From NCBI GenBank assembly GCA_963731685.1, contig CAVSWR010000036.1, positions 263,191 through 327,190 of the forward strand: DNA of 64,000 nucleotides. Reading direction: 5' to 3'. Below, one piece after another: positions 4,536 through 64,000 of this stretch. The notes beneath the pieces are model-generated. The model was not told the origin of the DNA and ran no database searches. It saw only the letters and a program-made list of their open reading frames with translations. This stretch comes from an uncultured Planctomycetia bacterium (GTDB lineage Bacteria; Planctomycetota; Planctomycetia; Pirellulales; S012-138). The position numbers and the translations under genes were made by a program. How positions within the stretch are numbered: the stretch's first letter is position 1; each line of letters opens with the position of its first letter.

Positions 4536-4550
4536 CTGAAAGCTGGCGCC

Positions 4551-5819: not shown

Positions 5820-5830
5820 CCGCATGACCC

Positions 5831-7042: not shown

Positions 7043-7100
7043 GTTGGATACGGAACGTTGACTCGCGGTTTGAAAGTCGATAAGCGACGGCGAAACTGCC

Positions 7101-8264: not shown

Positions 8265-8370
8265 TCGCGGGGCGCGGCCGAAGGCAAACGCTCGAAAGTG
8301 GTCGACGCCGGTAGCCGCCCCTTTCGCGAACGCCGAACTTCGGACATACCGAAGGCCTCGCTTCGGGCGG

Positions 8371-8571: not shown

Positions 8572-8587
8572 CGCCGATTCGAATAAA

Positions 8588-10843: not shown

Positions 10844-10938
10844 TTAGTCCACGCGCGCGACGTGACGCACAATGCGGCTAGCGTGGGCGGCTAGCGTGGG
10901 CGGCTAGCGTGGGGCGGCTCGTGTGGAATGAATTCCAC
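10844..10938. repeat. Palindrome GCGTGGAttttagTCCACGC, three tandem 13-bp units GCGGCTAGCGTGG (10875-10913) plus a partial fourth, then palindrome GTGGAATgAATTCCAC
   Basis: Direct reading of the intergenic region between the NTPase start and the nfi stop. Confidence 0.6.
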
Positions 10939-10981
10939 GCTACGGAAGGTTGTGTTCGACTCCAGCCGCCCTGCCGGGAAT

Positions 10982-27323: not shown

Positions 27324-28416
27324 ACACTTCGATCCTGGTATTCGTCCTTGAATTGTTGCGTTGTGGCAAAGCTGGTTTGATGGGTTTCAAACAAGACTTG
27401 GCAAACCGAGGCCGCATCGAGCGCACCGCCCGGCGAAGACACGGCAGCTTGCTCCGCGGGTTGGGGTTCCGCCGATTGCAGCGCCTTGGGGTCTGGCTGA
27501 GTGGTCTGGGTTTCCGAGAATTCTGTTGGGCGCGTGGACTCTCCTCCTCGTCCTCCGGCGCTGCGCGCCGCGACTCGGCGAAGGCGGCATAATCCTCGTC
27601 CTGGCGGTCGGCCAGATTCCGCAAGTCGGCTTGGACTCGTCTGCCTTCGGCCGACGGCATCGACGTATTGATGACGGGAATCGGCGGAGGCTTCCGGCGA
27701 GGCGGCGCAATGGACGGCGGAGCAAAGGGGCCTTGTCGCGACGTTTGCGGACTCGCGTTGGCCAGTTCCGCCGCGTCAGTCGGGCCGCCGTTTTGCCCGC
27801 TTTCGCCTAGCAACGCAGTCGCCAGCGCGGCCATCGCGCGGACGACTGCGACAACGCGCCGAGAGTCGCTCACCAACCCCGGTTCAACAATTTGAATTCC
27901 ACGGTCGTCGATGGTCACATTGGGACTGCCTCGCAGAAACCGCTGGATTCGCAGCTGCCGCTCGGGCGTCAGGAACGCGCGCACGGCGTCGGGATCGGCG
28001 CCTTTCACCAGCGCCTCGGCGTCGAACGACGGGTTGCCCACCTCGATGTCTTGGGCTCCAAACTCTTTGGACACGCTGCTGATGAACCCCTCGCGGGTGA
28101 TCCGGAGACCCAAATTCAAGGACTGAGAAAACGTCAATCTGAAGCGCATGTGCGCGCCGGAGTTTCCGGAGCGCGCCGCGTACGTATCCAACTTGACGTA
28201 GAACCCACGATACGATCCTTGCATGAAACGCCGCTGCAAAACCCCGCCGCCGTGATTGGCGAGTCCCAACTGCGCGGCTGCGGTTTTCCACGCCGAGTCG
28301 GCCTCGCTGGTGCGGGCCACGTTGACGAGTACGCAAATCACAACAACAATGACGATGATGTAGACGACGGTCATAGCGGCAGTCCCACCTGGCGAGTCCC
28401 CCGTCCCCAACGTCAC
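27301..28416 (-). CDS. Hypothetical N-terminally membrane-anchored protein
   Basis: N-terminal TM helix VVYIIVIVVVICVLVNVA. The central region is protein-like; the C-terminal 80 aa are Arg/Pro-rich and suspect. Confidence 0.45.
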   Translation of the reverse strand: MTLGTGDSPGGTAAMTVVYIIVIVVVICVLVNVARTSEADSAWKTAAAQLGLANHGGGVLQRRFMQGSYRGFYVKLDTYAARSGNSGAHMRFRLTFSQSLNLGLRITREGFISSVSKEFGAQDIEVGNPSFDAEALVKGADPDAVRAFLTPERQLRIQRFLRGSPNVTIDDRGIQIVEPGLVSDSRRVVAVVRAMAALATALLGESGQNGGPTDAAELANASPQTSRQGPFAPPSIAPPRRKPPPIPVINTSMPSAEGRRVQADLRNLADRQDEDYAAFAESRRAAPEDEEESPRAQQNSRKPRPLSQTPRRCNRRNPNPRSKLPCLRRAVRSMRPRFAKSCLKPIKPALPQRNNSRTNTRIEVFAGPCAA

Positions 28417-47626: not shown

Positions 47627-47699
47627 GGGGACGTAGCTCAATCGGGAGAGCACCGGCTTTGCAAGCCGGGGGTTGGCGGTTCGATCCCGCTCGTCTCCA
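47627..47699 (+). tRNA. tRNA-Ala (anticodon TGC)
   Basis: Cloverleaf GGGGACG/CGTCTCC acceptor stem with the G3:U70 Ala identity pair. Anticodon loop TTTGCAA. T-arm GGTTCGATCC. Discriminator A. CCA is not encoded. Confidence 0.9.
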
Positions 47700-47702
47700 C
47701 TA

Positions 47703-47865: not shown

Positions 47866-47963
47866 GACTCCACTTGATTCAGCGAGTCATGGGCGATGGC
47901 TAAGGAAACTCCATCATCGCGAAAGACAAGGTCGATACTCTCAAGATTCGTGCTCGCGCAATC

Positions 47964-48152
47964 GTGGGGCGCGATGGCGATTCCAAACAGGTTGCTGCGC
48001 TACGCAACCTGAATGCTCACCTTCACGGCATCGAGATCATTACGTACGATCAGTTGCTGCGGATCGCCGCCCGAGTACTCGACGTCTTTGAAACTGCTGG
48101 CACCGCTACAACAGAAGCAACTGCTGACTCAGATGCGGAGATTCAGTTCTAA
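47964..48152 (+). CDS. Small hypothetical ORF (GTG start; frame open from 47904) downstream of the regulated promoter
   Basis: …KDKVDTLKIRARAIVGRDGDSKQVAALRNLNAHLHGIEIITYDQLLRIAARVLDVFE… with an acidic tail. No family recognised. Confidence 0.3.
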   Translation: MGRDGDSKQVAALRNLNAHLHGIEIITYDQLLRIAARVLDVFETAGTATTEATADSDAEIQF

Positions 48153-48296: not shown

Positions 48297-48800
48297 ATGA
48301 GTCTGGATCATGAATCCTTCACAATGAACGACATCGAGACACAACCTCCCCAGCGAATCCAGTTCGGCATTCGTGCTCTTCTCGGAGCGGTCACGCTGGT
48401 GGCTGCATTCTCCTCTGCGTATGCTTGGTTTCACCGCGCGTATATTTCCCCTCGCCGCCATTCGGAGGCCGTAGAACGACTGATCGAGTCACTGGTTGAC
48501 CGACGGCCGCCTGACATGACGCGTGGACAATGGGGTTGTGCCGTTGCCTGGACGCTTAACTTGCATGGCAACAGTCTTCTGCAGTTCGAGGCCACCGGCC
48601 CCACTATTGAAGCGTTTAAGCAACGGCTGAAACAGAAACTTGACGGCGACGTCGATTTGGAGACCATTCACTGGATCTGGGATGAATATGCAGGCATTTG
48701 TCCACACGGCGCTAGCTACCAGCGGTTTAAGGCCCAAATGCAGGATGAGATTGCCAACGTCGGCCCAAATGACGACCCTTGGTCAATGAGGGTACCCTAG
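48297..48800 (+). CDS. Hypothetical protein, lower GC, island-borne
   Basis: 167-aa ORF with an N-terminal hydrophobic helix ALLGAVTLVAAFSSAYAWF. Confidence 0.45.
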   Translation: MSLDHESFTMNDIETQPPQRIQFGIRALLGAVTLVAAFSSAYAWFHRAYISPRRHSEAVERLIESLVDRRPPDMTRGQWGCAVAWTLNLHGNSLLQFEATGPTIEAFKQRLKQKLDGDVDLETIHWIWDEYAGICPHGASYQRFKAQMQDEIANVGPNDDPWSMRVP

Positions 48801-48915: not shown

Positions 48916-51693
48916 GTGCCAGCCCGGGTTGATACAATCAGCAAAGCAAATGCCGCGCCCCGGCCCGACTACGACCGCGACCTGGCGCTGCTCGACGCCG
49001 ACACCGGCTACCAGTCCGACAGCGCCGCCCGCTACGCCAGTGAGATGCTCGCGCTGGCCCAAGGCAGCGACACGCCCTGGGGCTGGGAGCACTCTGCGGA
49101 GGCCGCCGCCGCGGCCGAATACGCCTCCTCGATGGCCGCCGCCGCACTGACCGACGGCACGGCCACGATCGACGAGAGCTACACGTTCGCGCAGACCGTG
49201 GCCGACGAGACCCGCACGCTTTCGGTTAACGAGGCCACGGCCGCCTTCAATTCCGCCACGGCGCTGGCCGCGGCCGAGTACAACCACGTGACGTCCCACG
49301 CCACGGCCCTGGCCAACGACAACTACGACATCGCCGAGCGCGTGCCGACGGCGGTGATCACCTTGGTGGGATTGGACGACCTGGATGGCCGCGCGGCCGG
49401 CGACCCGGCCGACTTCATCGCGGCCTTGAACAAGAACGGCGGCTCCCCGTTCAGTGACCTCGGCGACAGCTTCTACACGGCGGCCGTCGACAAGATGTTC
49501 TACACGCCGCCGGAGACCGACGAACTCGGCTACAGCAACAGCTTCGACCGCTGGCTCGGCGAGAACCTCATCCGCCCCGCCGTCGGCGACGACAACCTCA
49601 TCAACGCCACCGACGCCCAGCTATTCTGGGGCACCGCGGCCTTCGCCGCGATAAGCGCGGTGAGCATTGTCTACGCCGCCCCAGTGCTCGCCACGGCCGT
49701 GGTCGACATGGGCATCAAGGGGGTGGTGTTCACACTGGCGAAAGATTTCATCATTGGCGGCGCGATCTCTGGCATCATCGACGCGGGCGTGCAGTTGGAG
49801 CACATGTACGAAAACGGCGGCGACTTCAATTGGAGTCGACTCGGCGAGTCCATCGTCGTGGGCGGTGTGATGGGCATGGGGATGGGAACGGCCTTCCGCG
49901 GCGTGCAGACCTTGTCGAAGGCCCTCACCACGCGCTACGCCGCGGCTTGCGTGCCGGTCACCATCGGCCAAAAGCTGGGGCTCGGCTACTTGGGCAGCAA
50001 GGGCATCGCTCATGGCGTCGAGGCCATCGGCAACGGCGAGACGGTCGAAGGCGTCAGCAGCATCTTGTTCGGCGCCCTCGGCGTGGCCGGCGCCCTGTCC
50101 ATGCGTTGGAACTGCTTCACGGCCGGCCATCAGATTCTCGCCTTGCCGCTCGGCGTGACCGTCGCTGAAGCTTCGGCAAGCATGAGCGACGAAACGCGAG
50201 GTTGGCGAACTGAGTATTTCATCGGCGCCAGCGTGGCGATTGCGGTCGGCATGACCGGTTGGGTGCGCGAACGCCGCAAACGCCGGCGACTGTTGGCGCA
50301 AGCCCGCGACCATGTGTATGGTTCCCAGTGGGAATCAAACTCGCGACATGACCTCGACGATGACGCATATCCAGATTTGATGCCGGAAGCAATCGCCATG
50401 GATGACGCCGAGGCTACTATTTGGGCGGATGAATCGTACCTGCCGGACGCGGACTATTTTGATGAGCGCGCAGCTCTACTTCAGGCGCTGAACAAGCTTG
50501 CGGCGTAGCGTGCCTACCGCGGCCACAAGCGGAGTTGATTCGCGATCCGCGCGCCGCGAAGCCATCCGCTGCGCGCAAAGCGAAGATCCCGGCCGATCAG
50601 CCGAGAGAATCACATCGCGGCGCGTCTATGGATCGGCCTTTCACTCATCGTCGCTTTCTTCTGTCTTTTCCAGGCGCTGCCCCGTTGGTCGCGCACCGAC
50701 GGCCTTTCTTCGTCGCGCACGCGACACGCTGTCGCTCCGTCTTCGCTCGACACGAATATCGCCAGCGACTACCGCGTCGGCGCCGAGAACTACAAGTTCT
50801 TCAACATCGAGGACATTCGCCCGGGACAGCTGGTCCTGGCGTCCAACCCTGCCACCGGCCAGCTTGAACCGCGCCGTGTCCTCCAAACCTTCCAGCGCAC
50901 AACCTACCACCTCCGCTACCTGACCTTCGAGTCTACCACCGGCGTCCGCCAAACCTTCGAGACAACGGACGAGCACCCGTTCTGGTCGCAATCTGAATTC
51001 CGCTGGGTATCCGCCGGCGACCTCCAACCCGGTGACCGCGTCATCGACCCGCACGGCGCGCAATCCCTCCTCGTCACCACCCACCGCGAGCCCCACCCCG
51101 AAGGCGTAACCGTCTACAACTTCGAGGTCGAAGGCTTCCACAGCTACTTCGTAGCGGCAAAAGGCCCTGGCGGTGAGCCGGTATTGGTGCATAATGCGGA
51201 CTGCGGCCCCAACTCGCCCAGCCGCTCCAGATCCCGTCCGTCAAACGACAACTTCCGTAACGGCTATGATCGGATATTTGGAAATGGTTCATCAGCAGAA
51301 ACGCGGGTGTTCCAAAATGAAATCCCCATCATGACACCAGCGCAAACGCAGCAAGCGCTAAGGGCTGGCGGCTACACAGGAAACACTTCGTGGGCATACA
51401 GCATTCATGATCATCACATCTCTCCGCGTTGGCTGGGTGGAAAAGACGCGGGACCACTGCTACGTGTGCGAGGTTTCGAGCATATTACCGATCTCGAACC
51501 TGGACTCTGGGCGCACGTGAAGCGAAACATCCCGGGGCTGACGGAAAAAACTACTGCAAATGTGCAGCGATTGATGCGAGACGGATTCGTCACAAGTGAA
51601 GAAATCATGCGAACGTTGTTCAGTTTTTACAAGGCTCGATATCCGCAACTATCGGATGAGGCAATCCTAAACGTGCTGAGACAGGGGTTGTGA
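48916..51693 (+). CDS. Polymorphic-toxin cassette A: 5'-truncated (homology to full-length copy starts ~48965, about aa 205) with two apparent frameshifts (~50440-50470 and ~50618); Hint domain plus C-terminal toxin tip A (DHH-type putative HNH/EndoVII-fold nuclease)
   Basis: ORFs 48916..50508, 50535.. and 51184..51693 together parallel copy 57352..60717. Landmarks are CFTAGHQILAL, …VYNFEVEGFHSYFVAAKGPGGEPVLVHN, then the tip …SIHDHHISPRWLGG…. Confidence 0.55.
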
Positions 51694-51694
51694 G

Positions 51695-52162
51695 ATGAAA
51701 TTCAACGAACAGATCCAAATTCGCGGCGAACCTTTTCCTAGCCCGCTCCCGTTGCCCCCATCACAAATGATTTCCCTGCTGGAGGCGCATGGCTTGCGAT
51801 TTGTGTTCGACGATGGCGTTTTGCGACTTCGTGGCACATATGACCCGACAAGATGCGAAACTTTAAAAGCGGTGTTGGCATCTAATGACCTTGATGTGAA
51901 TGTTTGGCAGCAAGTCTGGACAACATATGACGATGACGATTTCGACATGGCTCCTCTTTGGCTCGTCTTGGGGATTCCTGAAGTACGGATAGCGGGAATT
52001 GACTTTACTGTGACTTGCCCCATGTGCGCAAGAACCAAAGTCCACGTGGATACCGATGTACAAGTTCCAAGAGTGAATACACGCAAACCAATAGTCAACG
52101 TGAATGGGCAATTTACGATCGTTGGCGCAGAACTTGCCAGCGCATCGAAACGGACTTGCTAG
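51695..52162 (+). CDS. Candidate immunity protein for toxin tip A
   Basis: ATG overlaps the toxin stop (TGAGATG). ~48% GC. 155 aa. Confidence 0.45.
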   Translation: MKFNEQIQIRGEPFPSPLPLPPSQMISLLEAHGLRFVFDDGVLRLRGTYDPTRCETLKAVLASNDLDVNVWQQVWTTYDDDDFDMAPLWLVLGIPEVRIAGIDFTVTCPMCARTKVHVDTDVQVPRVNTRKPIVNVNGQFTIVGAELASASKRTC

Positions 52163-52176
52163 GATTCTCGCTGCCC

Positions 52177-52476
52177 ATGTTTGACGTTGCGGGCAGATAC
52201 CATTATTTGCGGTCTACGTGCCAACTTCGGCACCCTGCTATTCGTTCTGCTTACGCTATTGGTCTAAGAGGGAACTGCACGCTATGTTCGCTGCCACTCT
52301 ATGACAAATTCTTCGGCCCGCTGGAGTACCCCAGAAAGGAATGGCACGATGAGGATATTGTCTACTGCGACTTTTATAGTTGCAATGCATACACACCTAA
52401 GGCATACAATTTGCTTCGGAACGCTGACTCGGCTATTGTTCGAGACCGGATCATCTTGATGGAAGCATCGACGTGA
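52177..52476 (+). CDS. Second small low-GC ORF downstream of cassette A (hypothetical; possible additional immunity gene)
   Basis: 100-aa Cys/Tyr-rich ORF (…YCDFYSCNAYTPKAYNLL…). Confidence 0.3.
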   Translation: MFDVAGRYHYLRSTCQLRHPAIRSAYAIGLRGNCTLCSLPLYDKFFGPLEYPRKEWHDEDIVYCDFYSCNAYTPKAYNLLRNADSAIVRDRIILMEAST

Positions 52477-52539
52477 GTGAGCGGCTTTTCACATCTGACC
52501 GCACTGCAGTTCAGACGTCACACAGTCCAGGACGAGAAA

Positions 52540-52660
52540 AAGCTGGTATGTGGGTAACGCGATTTTAGCAACAGCGCGTACCGATTGCGCCTCCTGCGTT
52601 GCAGTCTTTGAAAGTTCAGTCGAAGGACTCGGCGCGGTTGCGGCGATCGACTCATCTCGG
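52540..52660 (+). repeat. ~115-bp inter-cassette element, copy 1 (second copy at 60995-61108)
   Basis: …CGCG(A/G)TTTTAGCA(A/G)CAGCGCGT…GAAAGTTC(A/C)GTCGA(A/C)GGACTCGGCG(C/T)GGTTGCGGCGATCGACTCATCTCGG… is conserved at both sites. Confidence 0.7.
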
Positions 52661-52752
52661 TCGATTTTCTGAGTTGTTCTCGCCAACTTGTCATAAAAGA
52701 GGCCAAGGCGCCGAGCTGCCATATCCGGCGTGCAACTTCTCGACAGAGCGCC

Positions 52753-54088
52753 GTGCTCTTGAAAAACGGCCTTGGCTCGCCAGCTTTCGCCGGCGGCGGC
52801 GCCGACCATGTCTACGAATCGCAATGGTGGATGGAACTGCCGCGCCACGCGGATGAAGACGATGAATTCGATCGGGCGATGAGCGAAGGAATCGCCGTGA
52901 CTGACGGCGCCGATGCGGATGTCTGGTCGGACGAGTCATTCCTCCCTGAGGCCGATTCTTTCCGTGATTGCGAACCTTCGCCAACTTCCGTTGGAGTTCA
53001 CGCTTTAGGCTGCTTGACGCCGCCGCGCGCGGAACGATCAACGGCAACGGCGCGCTTTTCGAAAGGCGCCACGTTCCCATAAAACGCTTATCGAGTCCAA
53101 GCCGCCGCGCGAATCCCGCCGCGGCGCGCTCTGGCTCGGTGTTTCGCTCCTCGTGGCCTTCTTCTCTCTGTTCCAGGCCCTTCCCCGTTGGTCAGCAAAC
53201 GACGGCCTTGCGCCGACGTGCGTTGAGCAAGCCGTCACTCTCGACTCGCTCGACACCAAACTTGCCGGCGACTACCGCGTCGGCGGCGAGTCCTTCAGCT
53301 TCTTCAACATCGAGGACATTCGCCCCGGACAACTCGTCCTCGCCTCGAACCCCGCCACCGGCCAGCTTGAGCCCAAACGCGTCAAGCAAATCTTCCGCCG
53401 CATTACGGACCATCTCCGCCACCTCACCTTTGAATCCTCCACCGGCGCCCGCCAAACCTTCGAAACCACCGACGAGCACCCCTTCTGGTCGCAATCCGAA
53501 TTTCGCTGGCGCCCCGCCGGCGACCTCCAACCCGGCGACCGAGTCATCGACCCCCACGGCGCCACCTCTCTCCTCGTCGCCACGCATCGCGAACCCCACC
53601 CCGAAGGCGTCCCAGTCTACAACTTCGAGGTAGAAGGCTTCCACAGCTACTTCGTAGCGGCAAAAGGCCCTGGCGGCCAGCCAGTGTTGGTGCATAATGC
53701 AAATTCACAAACATATGGCCCCCACAAATCAATTGGAACGAAAACCGGAGAGCAACGTCATCACATAATCCAAGATGCAAGAGCCAGGATTGTCGACAAC
53801 TACAAGTATGGCGATGCTCCCGCGGTTCGACTTCGGGGGAACCGCTTGCGTGGCACGCCGCATGGCGATGCGAGCGCGATGCAAACTCGAATAAATCAGA
53901 CGCTCCTAAAGAAAGGCACGACTCGGATAAGGTATCCACAAGCTCGATCGGCGGCGCGCGCTGAACTAAGGGCCGCAGGTCTCACGGAAAAGGAAATAGA
54001 CATCTTGATAGAGGAAGCCGACGATTACTTCATAAACGAACTGAAAATTGATGTAACGCAACGCATTTTCAACGTCCCAACGCAATGA
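52753..54088 (+). CDS. Polymorphic-toxin cassette B: 5'-truncated orphan (homology starts ~52800 at ADHVYxxQW); apparent frameshift ~53040-53090; Hint domain plus toxin tip B (RHHIIQ-type putative HNH-fold nuclease)
   Basis: …VYNFEVEGFHSYFVAAKGPGGQPVLVHNANSQTYGPHKSIGTKTGEQRHHIIQDARARIV… The tip is unrelated to tips A, C and D. Confidence 0.55.
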
Positions 54089-54921
54089 AAACCTGTAACT
54101 ATGTACGTATAAGGCGTGGCCTAACTGAGTGTAAATCACTAGTCTTGGCTCATATCGAAGATGATGACTCGCCAGATGTAATAGTGAGTCAACTCATTTC
54201 TATTGGCAGCGGTGACTGCGAAATTGTGGGTGACTTTCCAGGTGAGTGGATCACGTGCTTCGACGTTCAAGAAGACCTATGTGTTGCGGTTTCGTCGCTC
54301 GGAACAATCTACGAATATCGCCATGGTAAATGGAGCATCATTGCACAATTGACCTTTCCTAATGTGATCGCTGATGTGATCATATTGGATCGTGGCACGT
54401 ACTTGATTGCTGGCCAAGGCGGATTGATAGGCGAGTGGTCGCATGATGGATTTGTGCGAACCAGAGCATCTCGACGTGTGGACTTGATCTCAATTTGTCG
54501 CGATGAAGACGGTGGTTACTTGATATGTGGTGACCAAGGAACCATCCTGAGGTATCGCGACAATGCGGTGTTTAGCGAAGATGCAGGCACGCGTGAAAAG
54601 CTAACGAGGATTCTTTGTACGAATGCAGGTTTGTCATTTGCTTGTGGTTGGAACGGCGCATTGATACGGCGCGAAAGCGGAAAATGGCTACCGATGGATA
54701 GTGGCACAGATTGGTGCCTTACCGGGATCGCAATCACCGATCACGACCAAGTCTATGTGGCAGGTGGCGGGCTCGCCCGAGTTGGAAACGGTACTTGCTG
54801 TGTAGAAATAGATTCTGATCTAACGAATACATATTTATTTGACATATGGAAGATTCGTGACGAGCAGTTTATCGTTACCGGCGTGGACCAGGTATTGACT
54901 GGACCTCCGTGGAAAGTTTAA
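54085..54921 (+). CDS. Candidate immunity protein for toxin tip B
   Basis: ATGA start/stop overlap. ~45% GC. 278-aa protein with repeated G-x-L/I-rich units suggesting a repeat/propeller fold. Confidence 0.45.
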   Translation: MKTCNYVRIRRGLTECKSLVLAHIEDDDSPDVIVSQLISIGSGDCEIVGDFPGEWITCFDVQEDLCVAVSSLGTIYEYRHGKWSIIAQLTFPNVIADVIILDRGTYLIAGQGGLIGEWSHDGFVRTRASRRVDLISICRDEDGGYLICGDQGTILRYRDNAVFSEDAGTREKLTRILCTNAGLSFACGWNGALIRRESGKWLPMDSGTDWCLTGIAITDHDQVYVAGGGLARVGNGTCCVEIDSDLTNTYLFDIWKIRDEQFIVTGVDQVLTGPPWKV

Positions 54922-55062
54922 TGCAACCTTGAATATTGGTTTCAAACGTGGACTGCTGATCGTTGCGATGGTCTGCCCGTGCTACCTGTTGCGGAATTGA
55001 GGGCGACCAAGAACAGCCAAATCCGACTTGTGAGCCAGTTAGGTTCGCAACTAGCTCGGACT

Positions 55063-56712
55063 TACCTACCTGAGCGGCAAAGGCATCGCTCATGGCGTCG
55101 AGGCGATCGGCAACGGCGAGACGGTCGAAGGCATCAGTAGCGTCCTCTTGGGCGCCCTCGGCGTGGCCGGCGCCTTGTCGATGCGTTGGAACTGCTTCAC
55201 CGCCGGCCATCAGATTCTCGCCTTGCCGCTCGGCGTGACGGTGGCCGAAGCCGCGCTCGGCGCGAATGATGAAACGACCGGTTGGCGAACCGAGTATCTC
55301 ATCGGCGCCGGCGTAGCGATTGCCGTCGGCATGACCGGTTGGGCGCGCGAGCGCCGCAAACGCAGGCGATTGTTGGCGGAAGCCCGCGACCATGTGTATG
55401 GTTGCCAGTGGGAAACAAACTCGCGACATGACTTCGACGATAACGACGACCCGTTGCGGGAAGCAATCGCCATGGACCACGCGGAAGCCGCTATTTGGTC
55501 AGATGAATCGTTCCTCCCAGACGGGGATTCGTTCAATGAGCCAACAACCACGTCTTTTACTTCAGGCTCTGAACAAGCTCACAGCGTAGCGTGCCTTGCG
55601 CCGCCGCATGTGGCGCTTTCCGCTCGAATGCCGTGCGCCACGAAACCATCCGCTGCCCGCAATGCGAACGTGAAAGTTAAGACGCCGCGCCGATCCCGTC
55701 GCAGCGGTCTTTGGCTTGGTCTTTCACTCGTCGTAGCTTTCTTCTGCCTGTTCCAGGCGTTACCTCGCTGGTCTTCCACCGATGGCCTGCCATCGGCGGG
55801 CAATCGGCACGCCGTCGCTCCTTCTTCGCTCGACACGAACATCGCCAGCGACTACCGCGTCGGCGCGAACACGTACAACTTCTTCAACATCGAGGACATT
55901 CGACCCGGACAACTGGTCCTCGCCTCGAACCCCGCCACCGGCCAACTCGAACCGCGGCGAGTCCTTCAAACCTTCCGCCGCACAACCCATCACCTGCGCC
56001 ACCTGACCTTCCAATCCCCCACCGGCGCCCACCAAACCTTCGAAACCACCGACGAGCACCCCTTCTGGTCCCACGGCGCCGCCCGCTGGACCCCCGCTGG
56101 CGACCTCCAACCCGGCGACCGAGTCATCGACCCCCACGGCGCCAATCCCTACTCATCGCCACCCGCCGCGACCCCCATCCCGAAGGCGTCACCGTCTACA
56201 ACTTCGAGGTCGAAGGTTTCCACAGCTATTTCGTAGCCGCCAAAGGCCCTGGCGGCCAACCGGTATTGGTTCATAATGCAGCCTGCGGCCCCAACTCGCC
56301 CAGCCGGTCCAGATCCCGTCCGGCCAACGACGAATACCGTTCGAGTTACGACCGGATTTTTGGTGGCACCCCTAGGGGCGGAGCACATCCTGCTACTAAG
56401 AAAGCTGCAAGTTTTGGCAGTACAATGCATGCCGATAAACCCGGACACCTTCCGGACCAACTGCGTCAACGCTTTCCAGAGACTGAGTTTGAATTCACCA
56501 AACCGGGCGTTGCAGGACAAGATGTAAAGGTCGCGGGTGGCAAACACCCTTCGGATTACGCTGGATCGACGTGGCCAAGCGGAGTTAACCATGCTGATTT
56601 CAAACCGAATACCCCCGGTGGCTTGAAGACGTTCCAATCCGACCAGCTCAAGAAATGGTTGGAGAGGACCGAAATGTTACGCTACAATCCATCAACCGGA
56701 GACCTACTGTGA
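55063..56712 (+). CDS. Polymorphic-toxin cassette B2: 5'-truncated orphan (homology starts ~55063, just before the CFTAGHQ motif); 1-nt deletion ~56150; Hint domain plus toxin tip C (unassigned)
   Basis: ORFs 55148..56236 and 55711..56712. The tip shares its first ~25 aa (ACGPNSPSRSRSRPANDEYRSSYDRIFGG) with tip A and then diverges (…HADKPGHLPDQLRQRFPETEFEFTKPGVAGQDVKVAGGKHPSDYAGSTWPSGVNHADFKPNTPGG…). Confidence 0.5.
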
Positions 56713-57152
56713 TTAGCAAACAATTGGCGTATCCAGGGTTTACGATTGATGTTCCATGCAGCTGGGATGATATTACGGCGACTCTTGATGATGCGGACGC
56801 GCCTATTACAATCGCAGATCCTCAAGCAGGTTTGGGGGCGTTTCAGATATCGCCTGCGTTATATAAACGTGGTGTCTTACCCAAAGTGACGCCCAACGAC
56901 CTGCGGACTATGCTTCTTGAGTTTACGTCCGCTAAGGGCTTTCATGCCGCTGGCGACGTGATAGAGAATCTGGGCGACACCATTGTGGTGGGCGGCGTTT
57001 TTCGCAGTTCAAACTACGCCGTGGAAGTTGCCTACGCCTCTGACGGGCGGAGTATTCTGTTGGTAACCTATGTTTGTGAATGGTTTCAGAGGCGTCAGGA
57101 ATCGGACGTGAGAATGGCAGTGATCCGCTCAATCCGCTTTGTTGATTCTTAA
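56709..57152 (+). CDS. Candidate immunity protein for toxin tip C
   Basis: GTG overlapping the toxin stop (GTGA). 148 aa, soluble. Confidence 0.4.
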   Translation: MISKQLAYPGFTIDVPCSWDDITATLDDADAPITIADPQAGLGAFQISPALYKRGVLPKVTPNDLRTMLLEFTSAKGFHAAGDVIENLGDTIVVGGVFRSSNYAVEVAYASDGRSILLVTYVCEWFQRRQESDVRMAVIRSIRFVDS

Positions 57153-57351
57153 AGGCATGACGCATGACCAAGTCATGCTGTAACGACTCGTAGACCGCCA
57201 ATGCTTTAACCGAGAAGTAAAACGGGGACATCCTACTTTTTCGTTGCGGGTGCGCCGGCGTGCTGTCGAATGATCCGCCGCCGTGACCATCGTCTACGGC
57301 GGCCCGGCGATCGTCGCTGAGGTGAAGAGAAAAAGGGGATAAGTCCAATAT

Positions 57352-60300
57352 TTGCTCAATTTCAATCTGCCGTCGGTCGAGTTTTTGGTCGATCGGGCGT
57401 CGCACGAGGCGACCTGGGCCGCGGCCGAGGCGCCGCAATACGTCGCCTATCGCACGGCGGCGGCCCAGCTTCAACGCACTTACGACACCGCCGACATCAA
57501 CGCCGGGCGGGCCTGGGAAACCGCCCTGGCCACGGCCGGCTACAACCGCGACGTGGCCGAGGCCGCCGCCGAATATGCGAAAGAAACGGCCGTGGCCGCC
57601 GCGGGCAAGGCCTACGTCGACGGCGTCGCCCCCGTGGAGAGGACGCGCGCCGCCGACGTGGCCATAGCCTATCTCCTCTACGACTTCGCCGTGGCCGGCG
57701 CGCAATACGATTACGACATCGCCGATGTCCCGGACATGAACGTCTACAACGCCGCCGTGTCGGCCGCCGCGGGCGTTCGCGACGCGGCCGTCAAGACCGC
57801 CGAAAAGGCCTACGACACCGACGCCATCCAGGTCGAAAAGACGCGTCTTATCGCCCAGGCCGGCGCCGAACGTGACGCGAGCGTGGCTTTCGCCACCGCC
57901 GACGAGACTTGGCTCATCGCCGCCGCCGACGCCACGAAGACCGCCGCGCTGGCCGACGCCACGGCCGTCCACGACCGCGACCTGGCGCTGTTGAACACTG
58001 ACACCGGCTACCAGTCCGACAGCGCCGCCCGCTACGCCGATGAGATGCTCGCGCTGGCCCAAGGCAGCGACACGCCGTGGGGTTGGGAACACTCTGCGGA
58101 GGCCGCCGCCGCGGCCGAATACGCCTCCTCGATGGCCGCCGCCGCACTGACCGACGGCACAACCACGATCAACGAGAGCTACACGTTCGCGCAGACCGAG
58201 GCCGACGAGACCCGCACGCTTTCGGTCAACGAGGCCACGGCCGCCTTCAATTCCGCCACGGCGCTGGCCGCGGCCGAGTACAACCACGTCACGTCCCACG
58301 CCACGGCCCTGGCCAACGACAACTACCACATCGCCGAGCGCGTGCCGACGGCGGTGATCAACCTGGTCGGCCTGGACGACCTGGAAGGCCGCGCGGCCGG
58401 CGACCCGGCCGATTTCATCGCGGCCTTGAACAAGAACGGCGGCTCTCCCTTCAGCGACCTCGGCGACAGCTTCTACACGGCGGCCGTGGATAAGATGTTC
58501 TACACGCCGCCGGAGACCGACGAACTGGGCTACAGCAACAGATTCCAGCGCTGGCTTGGCGAGAACCTCATCCGCCCCGCCGTCGGCGACGACAATCTTA
58601 TCAACGCCAGCGACGCCGAGTTATTCTTCGGCACGGCCGCCTTCGCCACGATCGCGGCCGTCACCATCGTCTACACAGGGCCGACAATCGTTAGTTCGGT
58701 GATCGCCGCGCAGGGCGCCATCGCCGCCTTTGCCGGCAGTTCGTTTTTGGCGTATGAAGTCACGCAAGCGGCCACCGGCGCCGTCATCTCGGGCATCCTC
58801 GATGTGGCCATGCAGTTGCAAGCCGGCACGTCTTGGAGCCGCATCGACTGGGGGCAGGCCGGCATGGCCGCCTTGAACGGCGCCGTGACCGGCGCGGTTT
58901 TCGGCGCGGGCTTCAAGGGTCTCCAATTCGCCGCGACCGCCATCACCACGCGTTTCGCTGCGGCGTGCTTGCCGGTCACCTTCGGACTTAAAGGCATGAT
59001 GGCGGGCATGGCGGTCGACGGTATCAAGAATGGCGTCGAAGCGTGGAACAACGGCGACTTTGTCGGAGGCGCCACAAGCATAGCCTTTGGCATACTCGGC
59101 TTGAAAGGCGCCTTGAGTTTGGGCACAAACTGCTTCACCGCCGGCCATCAGATTCTCGCCTTGCCGCTCGGCGTGACGGTGGCCGAAGCCGCGCTCGGCG
59201 CGAATGATGAAACGACCGGTTGGCGAACCGAGTATCTCGTCGGCGCCGGCGTAGCGATTGCCGTCGGCATGACCGGTTGGGCGATCGAACGCCGCAAACG
59301 CCGGCGATTGTTGGCGGAAGCCCGCGACCACGTGTATGGTTGCCAGTGGGAATCAAACTCGCGACATGAACTCGACGACGACGCCCCGTTGCGGGAAGCA
59401 ATCGCCATGGACCATGCGGAAGCCACTATTTGGGCGGATGAATCGTTCCTGCCAGACGCGGACTCGTTCTATGAGCCAACAACCACCTCTTTTACTTCAG
59501 GCTCTGAACAAGTTCACAGCGTAGCGTGCCTCGCGCCGCCGCAAGTGGCACTTTCCACTCAAACGCCGCGCACCGCAAAAACATCCGCCGCCCGCAAAGC
59601 GAAGGTACCGACCGAGCCGCAGCGTAAATCACATCGCAGCGGTCTCTGGCTGGGTCTTTCACTCGTCGTTGCTTTCTTCTGCCTCTTCCAGGCGCTACCT
59701 CGCTGGTCCCGCACCGACGGCCTAACATCAGCGGGCACCCAACACGGTGTCGCGTCCGCGTCTTTCGACACCAACTTAGGCGCCGACTACCGCGTTGCCG
59801 GCGAATCCTACCAATTCTTCAAAATCGAGGATATCCGTCCCAACCAACTCGTCCTCGCCTCGAACCCCGCCACCGGCCAACTCGAACCGCGGCGAGTTCT
59901 CCAAACCTTCCGTCGCACAACCTATCACCTGCGCCACCTGACCTTCGAGTCCCCATCCGGCGCCCGTCAAACTATCGAAACCACCGACGAGCACCCCTTC
60001 TGGGCGCAATCCGAGTTTCGGTGGCGCCCTGCCGGCGACCTCCAACCCGGCGACCGCGTCATCGACCCGCACGGCGCGCAATCCCTCCTCGTCACCACCC
60101 ACCGCGAGCCCCACCCCGAAGGCGTAGCCGTCTACAACTTCGAGGTCGAAGGCTTCCACAGCTACTTCGTAGCGGCAAAAGGCCCTGGCGGGGAACCAGT
60201 GTTGGTTCATAATGCTAGTTACGGTGAGAATGCGCCAAGGGCGGGAGTCGCGTCAGCTGGCCCGGGAGCGGCGCAATCAAAGTCCAGCGGTTTTACGATG

Positions 60301-60717
60301 TGGCGTTGGATCACTGGTGAGCCCACAAAAGCGTTTCCGCAGGCTCGATTTTCTTTCTACCGTGTCGCCAGATCAGAGAAGTTTGCTTCGCACTTTGGAT
60401 TTTCGAGAGTAGGAGCCGCAAATCGGTCCGAATACGCAGCTTTCCTGCGACAATTGCGTAGCGCTGAGTTTAGACAAAGCAACGTCGTACAAGGCGGTTG
60501 GGCTGGCCGCGGTGCTGACGGAAACATCGTTATGGCACTAAGCCAGCGCAATCTGAACAACACTATGGCTGCGACTCATGAACTGACGCATTTAGTTCGG
60601 AACTTCCGGGGGATTACGCCTTTTGAGGCTGAGGCATCAATGCGTGGAGTCTTTCGATACAGAGCTTGGATTGAGGAGGCCAGAACATGGTGGCACATGT
60701 GGAGAGGTGGGCAATGA
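57352..60717 (+). CDS. Intact polymorphic toxin (1121 aa): Ala-rich N-terminal region, variable Gly-zipper-like hydrophobic segment, split Hint domain, C-terminal HExxH (zinc-metallopeptidase-like) toxin tip D
   Basis: Single uninterrupted ORF from TTG 57352. Contains CFTAGHQILALPLG…(insert with RRKRRRLL and the TM helix LWLGLSLVVAFFCLF)…IEDIRPNQLVLASNPATGQLEPRRV…TTDEHPFW…GDRVIDP…VYNFEVEGFHSYFV…VLVHNAS, then tip D with AATHELTHLV. Confidence 0.7.
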   Translation: MLNFNLPSVEFLVDRASHEATWAAAEAPQYVAYRTAAAQLQRTYDTADINAGRAWETALATAGYNRDVAEAAAEYAKETAVAAAGKAYVDGVAPVERTRAADVAIAYLLYDFAVAGAQYDYDIADVPDMNVYNAAVSAAAGVRDAAVKTAEKAYDTDAIQVEKTRLIAQAGAERDASVAFATADETWLIAAADATKTAALADATAVHDRDLALLNTDTGYQSDSAARYADEMLALAQGSDTPWGWEHSAEAAAAAEYASSMAAAALTDGTTTINESYTFAQTEADETRTLSVNEATAAFNSATALAAAEYNHVTSHATALANDNYHIAERVPTAVINLVGLDDLEGRAAGDPADFIAALNKNGGSPFSDLGDSFYTAAVDKMFYTPPETDELGYSNRFQRWLGENLIRPAVGDDNLINASDAELFFGTAAFATIAAVTIVYTGPTIVSSVIAAQGAIAAFAGSSFLAYEVTQAATGAVISGILDVAMQLQAGTSWSRIDWGQAGMAALNGAVTGAVFGAGFKGLQFAATAITTRFAAACLPVTFGLKGMMAGMAVDGIKNGVEAWNNGDFVGGATSIAFGILGLKGALSLGTNCFTAGHQILALPLGVTVAEAALGANDETTGWRTEYLVGAGVAIAVGMTGWAIERRKRRRLLAEARDHVYGCQWESNSRHELDDDAPLREAIAMDHAEATIWADESFLPDADSFYEPTTTSFTSGSEQVHSVACLAPPQVALSTQTPRTAKTSAARKAKVPTEPQRKSHRSGLWLGLSLVVAFFCLFQALPRWSRTDGLTSAGTQHGVASASFDTNLGADYRVAGESYQFFKIEDIRPNQLVLASNPATGQLEPRRVLQTFRRTTYHLRHLTFESPSGARQTIETTDEHPFWAQSEFRWRPAGDLQPGDRVIDPHGAQSLLVTTHREPHPEGVAVYNFEVEGFHSYFVAAKGPGGEPVLVHNASYGENAPRAGVASAGPGAAQSKSSGFTMWRWITGEPTKAFPQARFSFYRVARSEKFASHFGFSRVGAANRSEYAAFLRQLRSAEFRQSNVVQGGWAGRGADGNIVMALSQRNLNNTMAATHELTHLVRNFRGITPFEAEASMRGVFRYRAWIEEARTWWHMWRGGQ

Positions 60718-60971
60718 CGGGACACACAACAAAGCTACAACGAGCGTTCTGGTGGTGGCGAAACCCGTTTGTAAAGTTAATCATGCTCATAGCCTTTTCA
60801 GCAATCGGTGGTATAGCTCTTGCAACGCATGAGCTGCCGTTCTGGGTCCGTTTTCCCATTTACATTCTGTGGAGCGTCACTGCAATTCTCACGTTGATTT
60901 GTGCCGCGGCTGTTCTATTGGAGGAACGCGCGCGAAAGAAAAGGCGGAAAGTGTCGGAGGATAAATCATGA
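60714..60971 (+). CDS. Candidate immunity protein for tip D: small two-TM membrane protein
   Basis: ATGA overlap with the toxin stop. Hydrophobic helices LIMLIAFSAIGGIALA and ILWSVTAILTLICAAAVLL, then a KKRRK tail. Confidence 0.5.
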   Translation: MTGHTTKLQRAFWWWRNPFVKLIMLIAFSAIGGIALATHELPFWVRFPIYILWSVTAILTLICAAAVLLEERARKKRRKVSEDKS

Positions 60972-60994
60972 GTTGATGAGGGAAAAAAGCTGTC

Positions 60995-61108
60995 ATGTGG
61001 GGAACGCGGTTTTAGCAGCAGCGCGTGCGGATCGCGGCCCAGCGTCGCGGGTTTTTCGAAAGTTCCGTCGACGGACTCGGCGTGGTTGCGGCGATCGACT
61101 CATCTCGG
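60995..61108 (+). repeat. ~115-bp inter-cassette element, copy 2
   Basis: Homologous to 52540-52660. Confidence 0.7.
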
Positions 61109-61321
61109 ACGGAAGAAAGGACGCGGGCGCATATATTGGGACACTTGCACAATCTGTCGGAGAAAGGAGGACATTCTACTTTTCCTGAATACGTGGAACG
61201 CCCCTTTGTTGTCAGAGCGCGACCTCACTGGCGGCAACTTCCTCCGTGACGGCCTTGTGATCGACTCGTCCGTTTCCTGCGACGACGATGTCCACACGTC
61301 GGTCGCCACACACGGAGGAGA

Positions 61322-64000
61322 TAAGTCCAATATTTCCTCCGTTCCCTTGCTCAATTACAACCTCCCGTCGGTCGATTTTCTGGTCGATCGGGCGTCGCAC
61401 GAGGCGACCTGGGCCGCGGCCGAGGCGCCGCAATACGTGGCCTATCGCACGGCGGTGGCCGGGTTGCAACGGGCTTACGACACGGCCGACATCAACGCCG
61501 GGCGGGCCTGGGAAACCGCCCTGGCCACGGCCGGCTACAACCGCGACGTGGCCGACGCCGCCGCCGAGTATGCGAAAGAAACGGCCGTGGCCGCCGCCGG
61601 CAAGGCCTACGCCGACGGCGTCGCCCCCGTGGAGAGGACCCGCGCCGCCGCCGTGGCCGCCGCCTATCGCGTCTACGACCTCGCCGTGGCCGACGCCCAG
61701 CGCGATTACGACACGGCCGATGTCCCGGATATGAACGCCTACAACGCCGCCGTGTCGGCCGCCGCGGGCGTTCGCGACGCGGCCGTCAAGACCGCCGAGA
61801 AGGCCTACGACACCGGGGCCATCCAGGTCGAAAAGACGCGTCTCATCGCCCAGGCCGGCGCCGAGCGTGACGCGAGCGTGGCTTTCGCCACGTCCGACGA
61901 GACTTGGCTCATCGCCGCCGCCGACGCCACGAAGACCGCCGCGCTGGCCGACGCCGCGGCCGTCCACGACCGCGACCTGGCGCTGCTGAACACCGACACC
62001 GGCTACCAGTCCGACAGCGCGGCCCGCTACGCCGACGAGATGCTCGCGCTGGCCCAAGGCAGCGACACGCCCTGGGGCTGGGAACACTACGCGGAGGCCG
62101 CCGCCGCGGCCGAATACGCCTCTTCGATGGCCACGGCCGCACTGACCGACGGCACAACCACCATCAACGAAAGCTACGCGTTCGCCCAAACCGAGGCCGA
62201 CGAGACCCGCACGCTTTCGGTGAACGAGGCCACGGCCGCCTTCAATTCCGCCACGGCGCTGGCCGCGGCCGAGTACAACCACGTCACGTCCCACGCCACG
62301 GCCCTGGCCGACGACAACTACCACATCGCCGAGCGCGTGCCGACGGCGGTGATCAACCTGGTCGGCCTGGACGATCTGGAAGGCCGCGCGGCCGGCGACC
62401 CGGCCGACTTCATCGCGGCCTTGAACAAGAACGGCGGCTCTCCCTTCAGCGACCTCGGCGACAGCTTCTACACGGCGGCCGTCGACAAGATGTTCTACAC
62501 GCCGCCGGAGACCGACGAACTCGGCTACAGCAACAGCTTCGACCGCTGGCTCGGCGAAAACCTCATCCGCCCCGCCATCGGCGACGACAATCTCATCAAC
62601 GCCACCGACGCCCAGCTATTCTGGGGCACCGCGGCCTTCGCCGCGATAAGCGCGGTGACCATCGTCTACGCCACCCCAGTGCTCGCCACGGCGGTGGTCG
62701 ACATGGGCATTAAGGGTGTGGCGTTCACTCTCGCGAAGGATTTCATAATCGGCGGCGCGATTTCTGGCGTCATCGACGCCGGAGTCCAGTTGGAGCACAT
62801 GTACGAAAACGGTGGTGACTTCAATTGGAGCCGACTCGGCGAGTCCGTCGTCGTGGGCGGCGTGATGGGCATGGGCATGGGAACCGCCTTCCGCGGCGTG
62901 CAGACCTTGTCGAAGGCCCTCACCACGCGCTACGCGGCGGCTTGCGTGCCGGTCACCATCGCCCAAAAGCTGGGGCTTACCTACCTGAGCGGCAAGGGCA
63001 TCGCGCATGGCGTCGAGGCGATCGGCAACGGCGAGACGGTCGAAGGCGTCAGTAGCGTCCTGTTGGGCGCCCTCGGCGTGGCCGGCGCCTTGTCGATGCG
63101 CTGGAACTGCTTCACCGCCGGCCATCAGATTCTCGCCTTGCCGCTCGGTGTGACCGTCGCCGACGCTGCGCATCGGCGGCAAGTGATGAAACGAGCGGTT
63201 GGCGAACGGAGTATCTCATCGGCGCCGGCGTGGCGATTGCCGTCGGCATGACCGGTTGGGCGCATGAACGCCGCAAACGCAGGCGACTGTTGGCGCAAGC
63301 GCGCGACCATGTGTATGGTTGCCAGTGGGAATCAAACTCGCGACATGATGTTGACGACGACGACGAATCGAGCCCGTTGCGGGAAGCAATCGCCATGGAC
63401 GACGCGGAAGCCGCTATTTGGTCGGATGAATCGTTTCTGCCAGACGCGGATTCGTTTGATGAGCCAGCAACTACCTCCTTCGCTTCAGGCGCCGAGCAGT
63501 TCACGGCGTAGCATGCCTGCCGCCGCCGCAAGCGGCGCAGTTGATTCAAACGCCGCGCGCCGCAAAACCATCCGCTGCCCGCAAAGCGAAGATCCGACCG
63601 AGCCGCTGCGAGAATCACATCGCGGCGGTCTTTGGTTTGGTCTTTCACTCGTCGTCGCTTTCTTCTGCCTCTTCCAGGCGCTACCCCGCTGGTCCCACAC
63701 CGACGGCCTTCAATCAGCGCGCACTCGACACGGTGTCGCTCCGCTTCTCTCGACACGAACATCGCCAGCGACTACCGCGTCGGCGCGCGACACCTACAAA
63801 TTCTTCAACATCGAGGACATTCGTGCCGGACCAACTCGTCCTCGCCTCGAACCCCGCCACCGGCCAACTTGAACCGCGGCGCGTTCTCCAAACCTTCCGT
63901 CGCACAACCTATCACCTGCGCCACCTAACCTTCCAGTCCCCCACCGGCGCCCGTCAAACCTTCGAAACCACCGACGAGCACCCCTTCTGGTCTCACGGCG
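61322..64000 (+). CDS. Polymorphic-toxin cassette D (3' end outside window): starts at the same boundary as the intact copy (GDKSNI…LLNYNLPSVDFLV); three or more apparent frameshifts (~63165, ~63505, ~63790)
   Basis: ORF 61086..63251 matches copy 57352.. from 61322 on. The central hydrophobic segment is of the cassette-A type. After CFTAGHQILALPLGVTVA the frame is lost and resumes in ORFs 63230.., 63264.. and a further frame to the window end. Confidence 0.55.

Follow-up and report, generated by a model that had tools for sequence, protein, structure and literature searches.

The window analysed here, a stretch of 64,000 nucleotides (nt) from the genome of an uncultured Planctomycetia bacterium (assembly GCA_963731685.1, contig CAVSWR010000036.1, positions 263,191 to 327,190), holds an array of five related cassettes that resemble polymorphic-toxin modules: a conserved region carrying a HINT domain, a variable C-terminal tip, and a small open reading frame (ORF) directly behind it as candidate immunity gene. 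An earlier note, made from the letters of this DNA, had proposed five such cassettes in the same orientation, and both BLASTN and tblastn bore this out. With the segment 57001-61100 as BLASTN reference, four further copies were detected in the window (48952-51197, 53097-53700, 55092-56279 and 61347-63990), all five cassettes lying on the + strand and the copies showing identities of 79-93% over 0.6-2.3 kb (E=0 to 1e-153), a similarity that goes far beyond chance. When the 1121-amino-acid (aa) ORF at 57352-60717 was used as tblastn query, cassette 1 covered reference residues 207-958, cassette 2 residues ~659-968, cassette 3 residues 553-962 and cassette 5 residues 1-886, the last stopping where the window ends. 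At least two more cassettes are present on the same 338-kb contig outside the window. The cassettes and the ORFs that follow them are listed below, together with the parts of cassette 4; guanine-plus-cytosine (GC) content is given as a fraction, and TM-a and TM-b denote two predicted transmembrane (TM) helices.

48952-51693, + strand: cassette 1, a 5'-truncated toxin pseudogene (reference residue 207 onward); by translation, block A 50113-50145, VLVHN 51181-51195, tip 1 51196-51693
51695-52162, + strand: imm1, 155 aa, intact, beginning two bases past the tip-1 stop; GC 0.49
52804-54088, + strand: cassette 2, a short orphan starting in the loop region (residue ~659, tblastn); HINT core to 53698, VLVHN 53684-53698, tip 2 53699-54088
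54085-54921, + strand: imm2, 278 aa, intact, ATGA overlap with the tip-2 stop; GC 0.48
55070-56712, + strand: cassette 3, an orphan starting at residue ~553 (tblastn); block A 55193-55225, VLVHN 56263-56277, tip 3 56278-56712
56655-57152, + strand: imm3, 165 aa, intact, 58-nt overlap with the tip-3 stop; GC 0.51
57352-60717, + strand: cassette 4, the 1121-aa ORF (3366 nt) with TTG start, the sole uninterrupted toxin ORF
57352-58614, + strand: Ala-rich helical stalk fragment of cassette 4, residues 1-421 (24% Ala, net charge -39; by composition)
58615-59121, + strand: Gly/Ala-rich hydrophobic block, residues 422-590 (by hydropathy)
58652-59048 against 49650-50040 and 62650-63040, + strand: polymorphic stretch of the hydrophobic block
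59128-59169, + strand: HINT block A (NCFTAGHQILALPL), which holds the Cys nucleophile and lies apart from the remaining domain
59230-59697, + strand: HINT insertion, with TM-a 59230-59289, loop 59290-59640, TM-b 59641-59697
59785-60213, + strand: HINT core with block B (TTDEHPFW) and C-terminal VLVHN (60199-60213)
60214-60717, + strand: tip 4, 167 aa, with HELTH (an HExxH motif)
60687-60971, + strand: imm4, 94 aa (or 85 aa from the ATG at 60714, with ATGA overlap); GC 0.50
61347-64000, + strand: cassette 5, with the same starting point as cassette 4; the window end cuts HINT block B

The HINT domain named in the earlier note was recovered by profile search. The PT-HINT profile (PF07591) matched cassette 4 at E 1.7e-19 and cassette 2 at E 7.9e-21, a C-terminal fragment was found in cassette 3, and cassette 1 carries the same HINT sequence by translation. 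The shared junction peptide …VYNFEVEGFHSYFVAAKGPGG(E/Q)PVLVHN, said to end the domain throughout, stands at four VLVHN junctions; cassette 5 is cut inside block B before it could be reached. A phmmer search against the PDB returned the bacterial intein-like (BIL) domain of Clostridium thermocellum (2lwy) at E 5e-15, and an AlphaFold2 model of residues 590-960 of the 1121-aa ORF gave a predicted local-distance difference test (pLDDT) score of 93-98 across the HINT core, so that identity as a PT-HINT/BIL domain is supported by profile, PDB sequence match and fold. The sequence shows a block A Cys in NCFTAG, block B as TTDEHPFW, and VLVHN/A without Cys, Ser or Thr at position +1; the residue following His-Asn is Ala and the domain is therefore of the cleaving BIL type, not a splicing intein. 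A mobile intein was considered and rejected in view of the Ala at +1, the lack of a host protein, the variable toxin as C-terminal “extein” and an insertion of TM helices in place of an endonuclease.

The proposal of swappable C-terminal tips also held. The similarity of all copies ends at one reference base, 60215, and the four visible tips are mutually unrelated save for a 29-aa linker common to tips 1 and 3. The “HH” and HExxH motifs assigned to them are present, with profile support confined to one tip. In Pfam searches of the cassette proteins at E<=0.1 and of sub-segments at E<=10, tip 2 alone found any profile, a weak Tox-SHH match (E 0.006) whose score of 17.8 falls below the gathering cut-off of 22.7. 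Tip 1 carries a DHHI..GG HNH-like motif and has no Pfam or PDB match; nor has tip 3, and tip 4 matched no profile or PDB entry, an 86%-identical fragment of it being present in the protein P0031. The tips of the window are putative toxins, and recognised toxin domains occur elsewhere in the family: the cassettes elsewhere on the contig end in a Pput2613 deaminase tip (E 2e-20) and a Tox-URI2 tip (E 6e-9), and relatives carry tips of the WHH, AHH, EHHH, HHH, GH-E and Ntox8 types. Variation between strains had been put forward as a check. We compared tips and immunity ORFs with 78 GTDB loci and with L001-L003, three contigs from one ENA metagenome assembly of which L003 is the closest relative; none of those in the window recurs in either set, the close relatives carrying other tips, and the tips therefore vary between relatives.

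A linker of ~30 aa, A(D/A)CGPNSPSRSRSRP(S/A)ND..R..YDRIFG, follows VLVHN and precedes unrelated toxins, the deaminase tip and HNH-like tip 1 among them. It may represent a small pre-toxin or translocation element nested between HINT and tip, and was seen at the following sites.

51196-51300 and 56278-56380, window: linker of tips 1 and 3
P0037 and P0036: linker in called proteins
L001 12027-12131 and L003 17034-17171: linker in the related contigs

P0037 itself, encoded on the same 338-kb contig outside the window, is a called protein of 532 aa in which an N-terminal Cys_rich_CPCC domain (E 4e-5) runs in frame into a cassette of TM-b, HINT and deaminase tip; the gene call has probably joined a small ORF of the immunity type to an orphan cassette.

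In all four cassettes whose end is visible, a same-strand ORF of 94-278 aa abuts or overlaps the toxin stop. The earlier note had described these ORFs as low in GC with starts overlapping the toxin stop; low GC applies to all four (0.48-0.51) and overlap to three, imm1 beginning just beyond the stop. Tips and downstream ORFs together range from 0.48 to 0.55, as against 0.60-0.74 in the conserved cassette parts. While imm2 matched designed six-bladed propellers (SAKe) at E 1.2e-5 by phmmer and is a probable Kelch-like β-propeller, imm1, imm3 and imm4 gave nothing significant in Pfam, NCBIfam or PDB sequence searches, and imm4 has two strong predicted TM helices. The immunity function that we ascribe to these ORFs is suggested by their position and by the related contigs: L001-L003 are similar arrays of HINT ORFs followed by small ORFs, and their downstream position holds SUKH, SMI1_KNR4 and other DUF-type ORFs, with Endonuclease_NS_2 accompanied by SUKH.

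A feature that the earlier note overlooked is the poor state of the toxin genes. Truncation, frameshift or stop affects four of the five toxin cassettes, whereas none of the four immunity ORFs is disrupted. In cassette 1 the sequence for residues 1-206 is missing, and a pair of indels (-7 and +1) comes with in-frame stops at 50506 and 50536; as the frame offers no start codon from the second of these stops up to 51184, tip 1 is silent in its present state. The reading frame of cassette 2 changes near 53063 and its TM-b is truncated; cassette 3 is thrown out of frame within the HINT domain by a 1-nt deletion at 56142; and cassette 5 is intact for 1.8 kb (to 63170), then broken by six frame-disrupting indels between 63172 and 63825. 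With four of five toxins broken and four of four immunity ORFs intact, the locus is mainly an orphan reservoir. The copies are also mosaic. The Gly/Ala-rich hydrophobic block exists as two alleles, one in cassette 4 and one in cassettes 1 and 5, and in windowed DNA comparisons the latter two are 89-95% identical to each other and each only 42-60% identical to cassette 4, between flanks of 88-99%. Such mosaic identity indicates sequence exchange between copies, and the presence of two alleles of the hydrophobic block indicates that the swapped modules are not limited to tips.

Taken together, we put a probability of about 0.8 on the view that the locus is a tandem orphan toxin/immunity array of a Planctomycetota-specific polymorphic toxin family, serving as a reservoir of immunity genes and tips. 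The array would keep the cell immune to toxins circulating in the population, and its silent tips could be moved onto an expressed gene by homologous recombination within the stalk, TM and HINT sequence that is conserved over 0.6-2.3 kb. The recipient would be a leader-bearing giant surface toxin of the same family, whose full-length order, as reconstructed from relatives, would be leader, long stalk, Gly/Ala-rich hydrophobic block, PT-HINT, variable tip and downstream immunity gene; the stalk would be built from Big_13 immunoglobulin (Ig) repeats and/or more than 1000 aa of Ala-rich α-helix, or in some relatives from RHS repeats. Cleavage by the HINT domain at its C-terminal His-Asn (VLVHN/A), through Asn cyclisation, would then free the tip.

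The place of the window copies within this order follows from their N-terminal relatives. The earlier note had assumed a conserved Ala-rich N-terminal region in every cassette, which is true of cassettes 1, 4 and 5 but not of cassettes 2 and 3, whose similarity starts further downstream; it had also read the 1121-aa protein as an entire toxin whose N-terminal domain would be new, which could not be upheld. A word-indexed protein search with residues 1-820 yielded only four close relatives, three of them from one ENA metagenome assembly, and residues 1-612, searched exhaustively with HMMER, matched only 25 proteins out of 1.8 billion representatives; the scan of GTDB representative contigs yielded no relative of these 612 aa. 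Among the 25 matches are five giants of 2333-3573 aa to which the query aligns internally: query residues 2-607 correspond to residues 2440-3027 of P0008 (3573 aa), with similar internal positions in the proteins of 2333-3341 aa, so that the N-terminus of the 1121-aa ORF corresponds to residues ~1700-3000 of the giants. In L003 the codons with which the window ORF starts (LLNFNLPSVDF…) continue upstream into an ORF of ~2459 aa. A word-indexed search with the last 597 aa of that giant ORF returned nothing, Ala-rich low-complexity words having probably swamped the candidates. Also in L003, a frameshift separates the giant stalk ORF (1716-9095) from a cassette homologous to those of the window (9055-10950).

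The three giants with an intact N-terminus (P0012, P0016 and P0020) start with a leader containing LE(P/R)R.(M/L)(L/F)(A/T), and a complete Isosphaeraceae gene of 1591 aa (L034) is likewise leader-bearing (“MKTRSRR…SLESRQMLTA”); by its sequence, the leader of all four is of the Planctomycete type LE(S/P)R.(M/L)L. Behind it the giants show an Ala-rich helix of hundreds to thousands of residues, with Big_13 Ig repeats in P0008 and P0020, and all except P0020 share the hydrophobic block. PT-HINT and a tip are present in P0008, P0012 and P0027; P0016 breaks off just past block A, and P0020 ends in unrelated sequence. The relatives L030 and P0109 have RHS-repeat stalks. The Ala-rich stalk has no Pfam match, and Pfam ALF repeats were rejected as its identity for want of any match. 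Because the first residues of the window copies align internally in giants, L003 continues upstream and the leader-bearing homologues are longer, we regard the window copies as 5'-truncated, and the truncation points at reference residues 207, ~659, ~553 and 1 fit within that scheme, the reference itself matching an inner part of giant homologues. Pfam, NCBIfam and hydropathy revealed no signal peptide or trafficking domain in any cassette ORF of the window, as had been stated before; the longer relatives do have a leader, and the 5' truncation largely explains the missing trafficking domain. Of the suggested undescribed Planctomycete family, a poorly described Planctomycete family is a fair version, the stalk being absent from Pfam and rare. 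In NCBI, homologues from Planctomycetia already bear the name “polymorphic toxin-type HINT domain-containing protein”.

Cassettes 4 and 5 begin exactly at the truncation point, where they share 18 nt of non-homologous upstream sequence and a Shine-Dalgarno (SD)-like GG(G/A)GA before the TTG. On the simplest reading they derive from a duplicated 5'-truncated copy. They could instead be taken for complete genes, cassette 4 now and cassette 5 formerly, encoding a functional leaderless short form of ~1100 aa, in which case the array would consist of paralogous expressed toxins. The intact 3366-nt ORF agrees with this, as do the start codon and preceding SD-like sequence common to both cassettes, the annotation of the 1121-aa product by the gene caller, and an independent homologue of 1056 aa (P0010) that aligns from its residue 34. 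However, the first 33 residues of P0010 are still stalk-like and P0010 may be a truncated call, the same codons are internal to the giant ORF in L003, all homologues with a recognisable leader are much longer, and the N-terminus lacks a signal peptide in a stretch with a net charge of -39; a common 5' boundary is expected from the tandem duplication of an orphan as well. We therefore consider a functional short form unlikely, and equally so its export by an unknown non-Sec route or its insertion into the membrane through the hydrophobic block.

The HINT domain of this family has an unusual layout. The Pfam match begins at profile position 10, and the canonical block A (C-F-x-A-G-T) is absent just before it; a perfect block A, NCFTAGHQILAL, is found ~200 residues upstream of the HINT core in cassettes 1, 3, 4 and 5. 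The segment in between consists of a moderately hydrophobic helix, TM-a (EYLVGAGVAIAVGMTGWAI), then RRKRRR, an acidic and poorly conserved loop, a K/R-rich stretch, and TM-b (GLWLGLSLVVAFFCLFQAL), which is strongly hydrophobic and signal-peptide-like; both helices are also predicted by AlphaFold2. The Cys1-bearing first strand would thus be separated from the remaining ~125-140 residues of the domain. In a motif survey across all retrieved proteins, the spacing between block A and block B was 206-383 aa in 12 proteins of the Planctomycete type, including 27-32%-identical and RHS-linked ones, whereas the 19 proteins whose PT-HINT is unsplit had 64-98 aa, 17 of them lying at 64-70 aa. Among the GTDB loci, those of Planctomycetaceae, Pirellulales, Isosphaeraceae and Planctomicrobium show the split as well. 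In the window model the detached block A strand has a pLDDT of 87-91 together with β-strands, and in the distant RHS-linked P0109, our second model, it reaches 95 where the neighbouring residues stay below 50. Of the 138 residues of 2lwy, 136 can be superposed on the P0109 model at 1.2 A, more than the ~126 aa in the contiguous HINT part of that protein, and the detached strand must therefore fill the β1 position in that model. A HINT domain split by such a hairpin was also observed at the end of RHS-repeat proteins in L030 (19-6774, a Pirellulales metagenome-assembled genome) and P0109. Its occurrence behind RHS stalks indicates a module portable between stalk types (Ala-rich, Ig-repeat and RHS). 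No description of a HINT domain split by a membrane hairpin was found in the literature searched, and the arrangement is apparently undescribed.

By the positive-inside rule the loop probably faces the cytoplasm, which would place the two HINT pieces together at the outer face of the cytoplasmic membrane. The domain would be split after its first strand (C-F-x-A-G-T/H) by a TM helix, an R/K-rich and acidic loop and a signal-peptide-like TM helix, and this hairpin would hold the precursor at the cytoplasmic membrane until cleavage, the autoprocessing domain being itself the tether; cleavage at Cys1 and/or Asn would release stalk and toxin from the membrane. In its strongest form, this makes the pre-toxin HINT/BIL a membrane-embedded split module and the giant's sole membrane tether, with self-cleavage at Cys1 and the terminal Asn freeing stalk and toxin, or BIL-type splicing without a +1 nucleophile ligating the two. 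We offer this as a tentative proposal that is rather more likely to be wrong than right. The loop could couple maturation to a cytoplasmic signal.

A different role for TM-b has to be weighed here, in which the short cassettes are stand-alone Sec-secreted toxins that need no recombination, and TM-b (…RSGLWLGLSLVVAFFCLFQA/LPRWS) acts as N-terminal signal peptide or anchor. There are dozens of Planctomycete ORFs of 230-450 aa in which a HINT domain without block A comes directly after a start made up of Met, charged n-region and hydrophobic helix; six clusters have a conserved “MNSSSTPTQRL…” N-terminus, and a pattern with TM-b only is seen in about 25 GTDB loci. These short ORFs may be orphans or stand-alone secreted toxins. 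No cassette in the window can make such a product, though: cassette 1 offers no in-frame start between its stop and 51184, the ORF of cassette 2 begins in the middle of TM-b, and cassette 3 is frameshifted inside the HINT domain. A HINT domain without the first strand would moreover miss part of the fold, given that the detached strand of P0109 is needed to complete the superposition on 2lwy. For the cassettes analysed here we therefore find this explanation quite improbable.

Several observations nevertheless weigh against the reading as an orphan array and split HINT, and should temper its details. No family could be assigned with significance to tips 1, 3 and 4 or to any of the four immunity ORFs. 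No leader-bearing full-length gene was found for this genome, whose contig was covered across the window, and a reservoir serving a main gene is argued from the arrangement in L003; the leaderless 1121-aa product may be made from its TTG and work in some other way. As to the HINT domain, the sequence “DYRVAGES” just before the core in the subfamily of the window resembles a degenerate block A, and the models do not prove which strand fills β1 in the window protein itself; the topology is read from hydropathy and charge, and TM-a stays below 1.4 on the Kyte-Doolittle scale. Finally, errors of assembly or polishing within repeated sequence could account for the frameshifts, notably for the six that cassette 5 shows within 650 bp.

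Taken to its end, the last point would make the apparent pseudogenisation, and in part the array itself, an artefact of fewer intact genes mis-assembled or mis-polished owing to their repeats, for which the clustering of the six single- or double-base indels and the frameshifted HINT regions in related metagenome contigs and other contigs of the same genome can be cited; but this is hardly probable, as the cassettes differ by 7-20% in DNA and have distinct tips and immunity genes (separate loci, not collapsed reads), cassette 1 is interrupted by stops of the substitution type and by a deletion of 7 nt, the 5' truncation points differ among cassettes 1-3 and could not arise from faulty polishing, and long unique ORFs elsewhere in the window are intact. 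In L003, too, several downstream cassettes are frameshifted, so that L003 and the window share either their decay or their sequencing problem.

The host and the wider distribution are consistent with a family of this phylum. Genes typical of Planctomycetes elsewhere in the window, namely a PSD2-5/PSCyt3 (DUF1585-1595) protein beside a DUF1552 protein, as well as a DUF1559 protein, confirm a Planctomycete host. The scan of GTDB species representatives returned 309 HINT relatives. From 44% identity upward, nearly all of these belong to Planctomycetota (Planctomycetia, Blastopirellula, Thermoguttaceae, Planctomycetaceae, Fuerstiella, Schlesneria, Pirellulales, Isosphaeraceae and Phycisphaerae), with Actinomycetota appearing at lower identity, and many of the GTDB loci hold 2-4 cassettes.

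On its left side the array borders on a tRNA-Ala gene, an adjacency that the earlier note had reported correctly. This gene, its surroundings and the hallmark genes are given below, with a repeated segment that lies between cassettes.

47627-47700, + strand: tRNA-Ala (anticodon TGC; ARAGORN), the sole tRNA of the window and left neighbour of the array
47890-48152, + strand: remnant reading frame (…DKVDTLKIRARAIVGRDGDSKQVAALRNLNAHLHGIEIITYDQLLRIAARVLDVFE…) directly 3' of the tRNA-Ala
48297-48800, + strand: ORF of 167 aa with one N-terminal hydrophobic helix, GC 0.55, between the tRNA and cassette 1
52537-52660 and 60984-61108, + strand: repeated intergenic segment of ~124 bp, 88-94% identity
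2511-4535, 4551-5819 and 28413-30812, - strand: Planctomycete hallmark genes

Directly downstream of the tRNA-Ala, GC falls to 0.51-0.58. The remnant reading frame resembles the C-terminal end of a real protein without a proper start, and may be the relic of a former insertion at the tRNA. No att-like repeat of the tRNA 3' end occurs elsewhere in the window and no integrase is found among the neighbouring proteins tested, for which reasons a tRNA-targeted island is unproven. The 167-aa ORF has no Pfam match and may be an orphan immunity gene left by a lost cassette. The repeated segment, one copy upstream of cassette 2 and the other downstream of imm4, contains a weak terminator-like hairpin and is a junction relic, the footprint of a past duplication or deletion between cassettes; a scan for promoters and terminators gave counts equal to those of shuffled sequences and was hence uninformative.

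How does the array compare with known systems? The Rhs/CdiA/MafB-type architecture suggested by the earlier note is right in so far as this is a polymorphic toxin locus with orphan modules; the resemblance to CdiA, Rhs and MafB is one of analogy. Membership of the CdiA, Rhs, MafB, LXG and PAAR groups was rejected because their defining domains are absent from the cassettes: there is no match to two-partner secretion/filamentous haemagglutinin (TPS/FHA) domains, RHS repeats, DUF1020, LXG or PAAR. CdiB and type VI secretion system (T6SS) genes were not seen either, the rest of the window having been sampled for secretion-system genes rather than exhaustively screened. To our knowledge, Planctomycetota lack the usual T5/T6/T7 (type V, VI and VII) toxin-delivery systems. 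MafB of Neisseria is encoded in genomic islands with multiple toxin-immunity cassettes, some of them with BIL/HINT pre-toxin domains, and with additional orphan C-terminal cassettes. Unlike in MafB, no DUF1020 (MafB-N) or MafA is present here, and N-terminal architecture and host phylum are entirely different. The likeness to the orphans of CdiA-CT/CdiI and Rhs-CT/RhsI lies in silent 5'-truncated cassettes whose upstream homology would permit recombination onto a main gene, in an abrupt drop of identity at a fixed peptide (VENN or PxxxxDPxGL in CdiA/Rhs, VLVHN here) and in the lower GC of the toxin/immunity modules; in contrast to those systems, no main gene is located upstream of the array in the window and release would presumably occur by HINT autoproteolysis.

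The closest match is with the PT-HINT polymorphic toxins. The survey of Zhang, Aravind et al. (2012; PMC3482391) lists PT-HINT, Planctomycetes, α-helical ALF stalks and HNH/SHH, deaminase and URI tips. As in those systems, a pre-toxin HINT directly precedes a hypervariable C-terminal domain, here a putative toxin, the candidate immunity gene follows directly downstream, and arrays of 5'-truncated cassettes are formed. The stalk differs, being neither a Pfam ALF nor an RHS or FilH repeat, as does the HINT domain, which is interrupted after block A by the predicted two-helix membrane hairpin, and the copies in the window have no leader. With BIL domains such as 2lwy the cassettes share block A (C-F-x-A-G), block B (T-x-x-H-P-F) and the C-terminal H-N, and with the cleaving BILs a +1 residue that is Ala or Gly and not Cys, Ser or Thr; unlike in BIL domains, the β1-β2 loop of this family has taken up an insertion of 190-300 aa containing two predicted TM helices.

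Seen against these systems, the array would be a textbook polymorphic-toxin/orphan-immunity locus, adding a Planctomycete example with several unassigned toxin and immunity domains. It would further define a phylum-restricted family of giant surface toxins composed of leader, Ig or Ala-rich stalk, hydrophobic block, HINT and tip, in which the stalk is without a Pfam profile. If real and active, the split HINT would be a natural intein-like fold that assembles across an insertion of ~200 residues in the window protein (170-300 in relatives) with two transmembrane helices. It suggests a way in which Planctomycetota could tether and release their toxins, and bears on interbacterial competition as well as on the engineering of split inteins.

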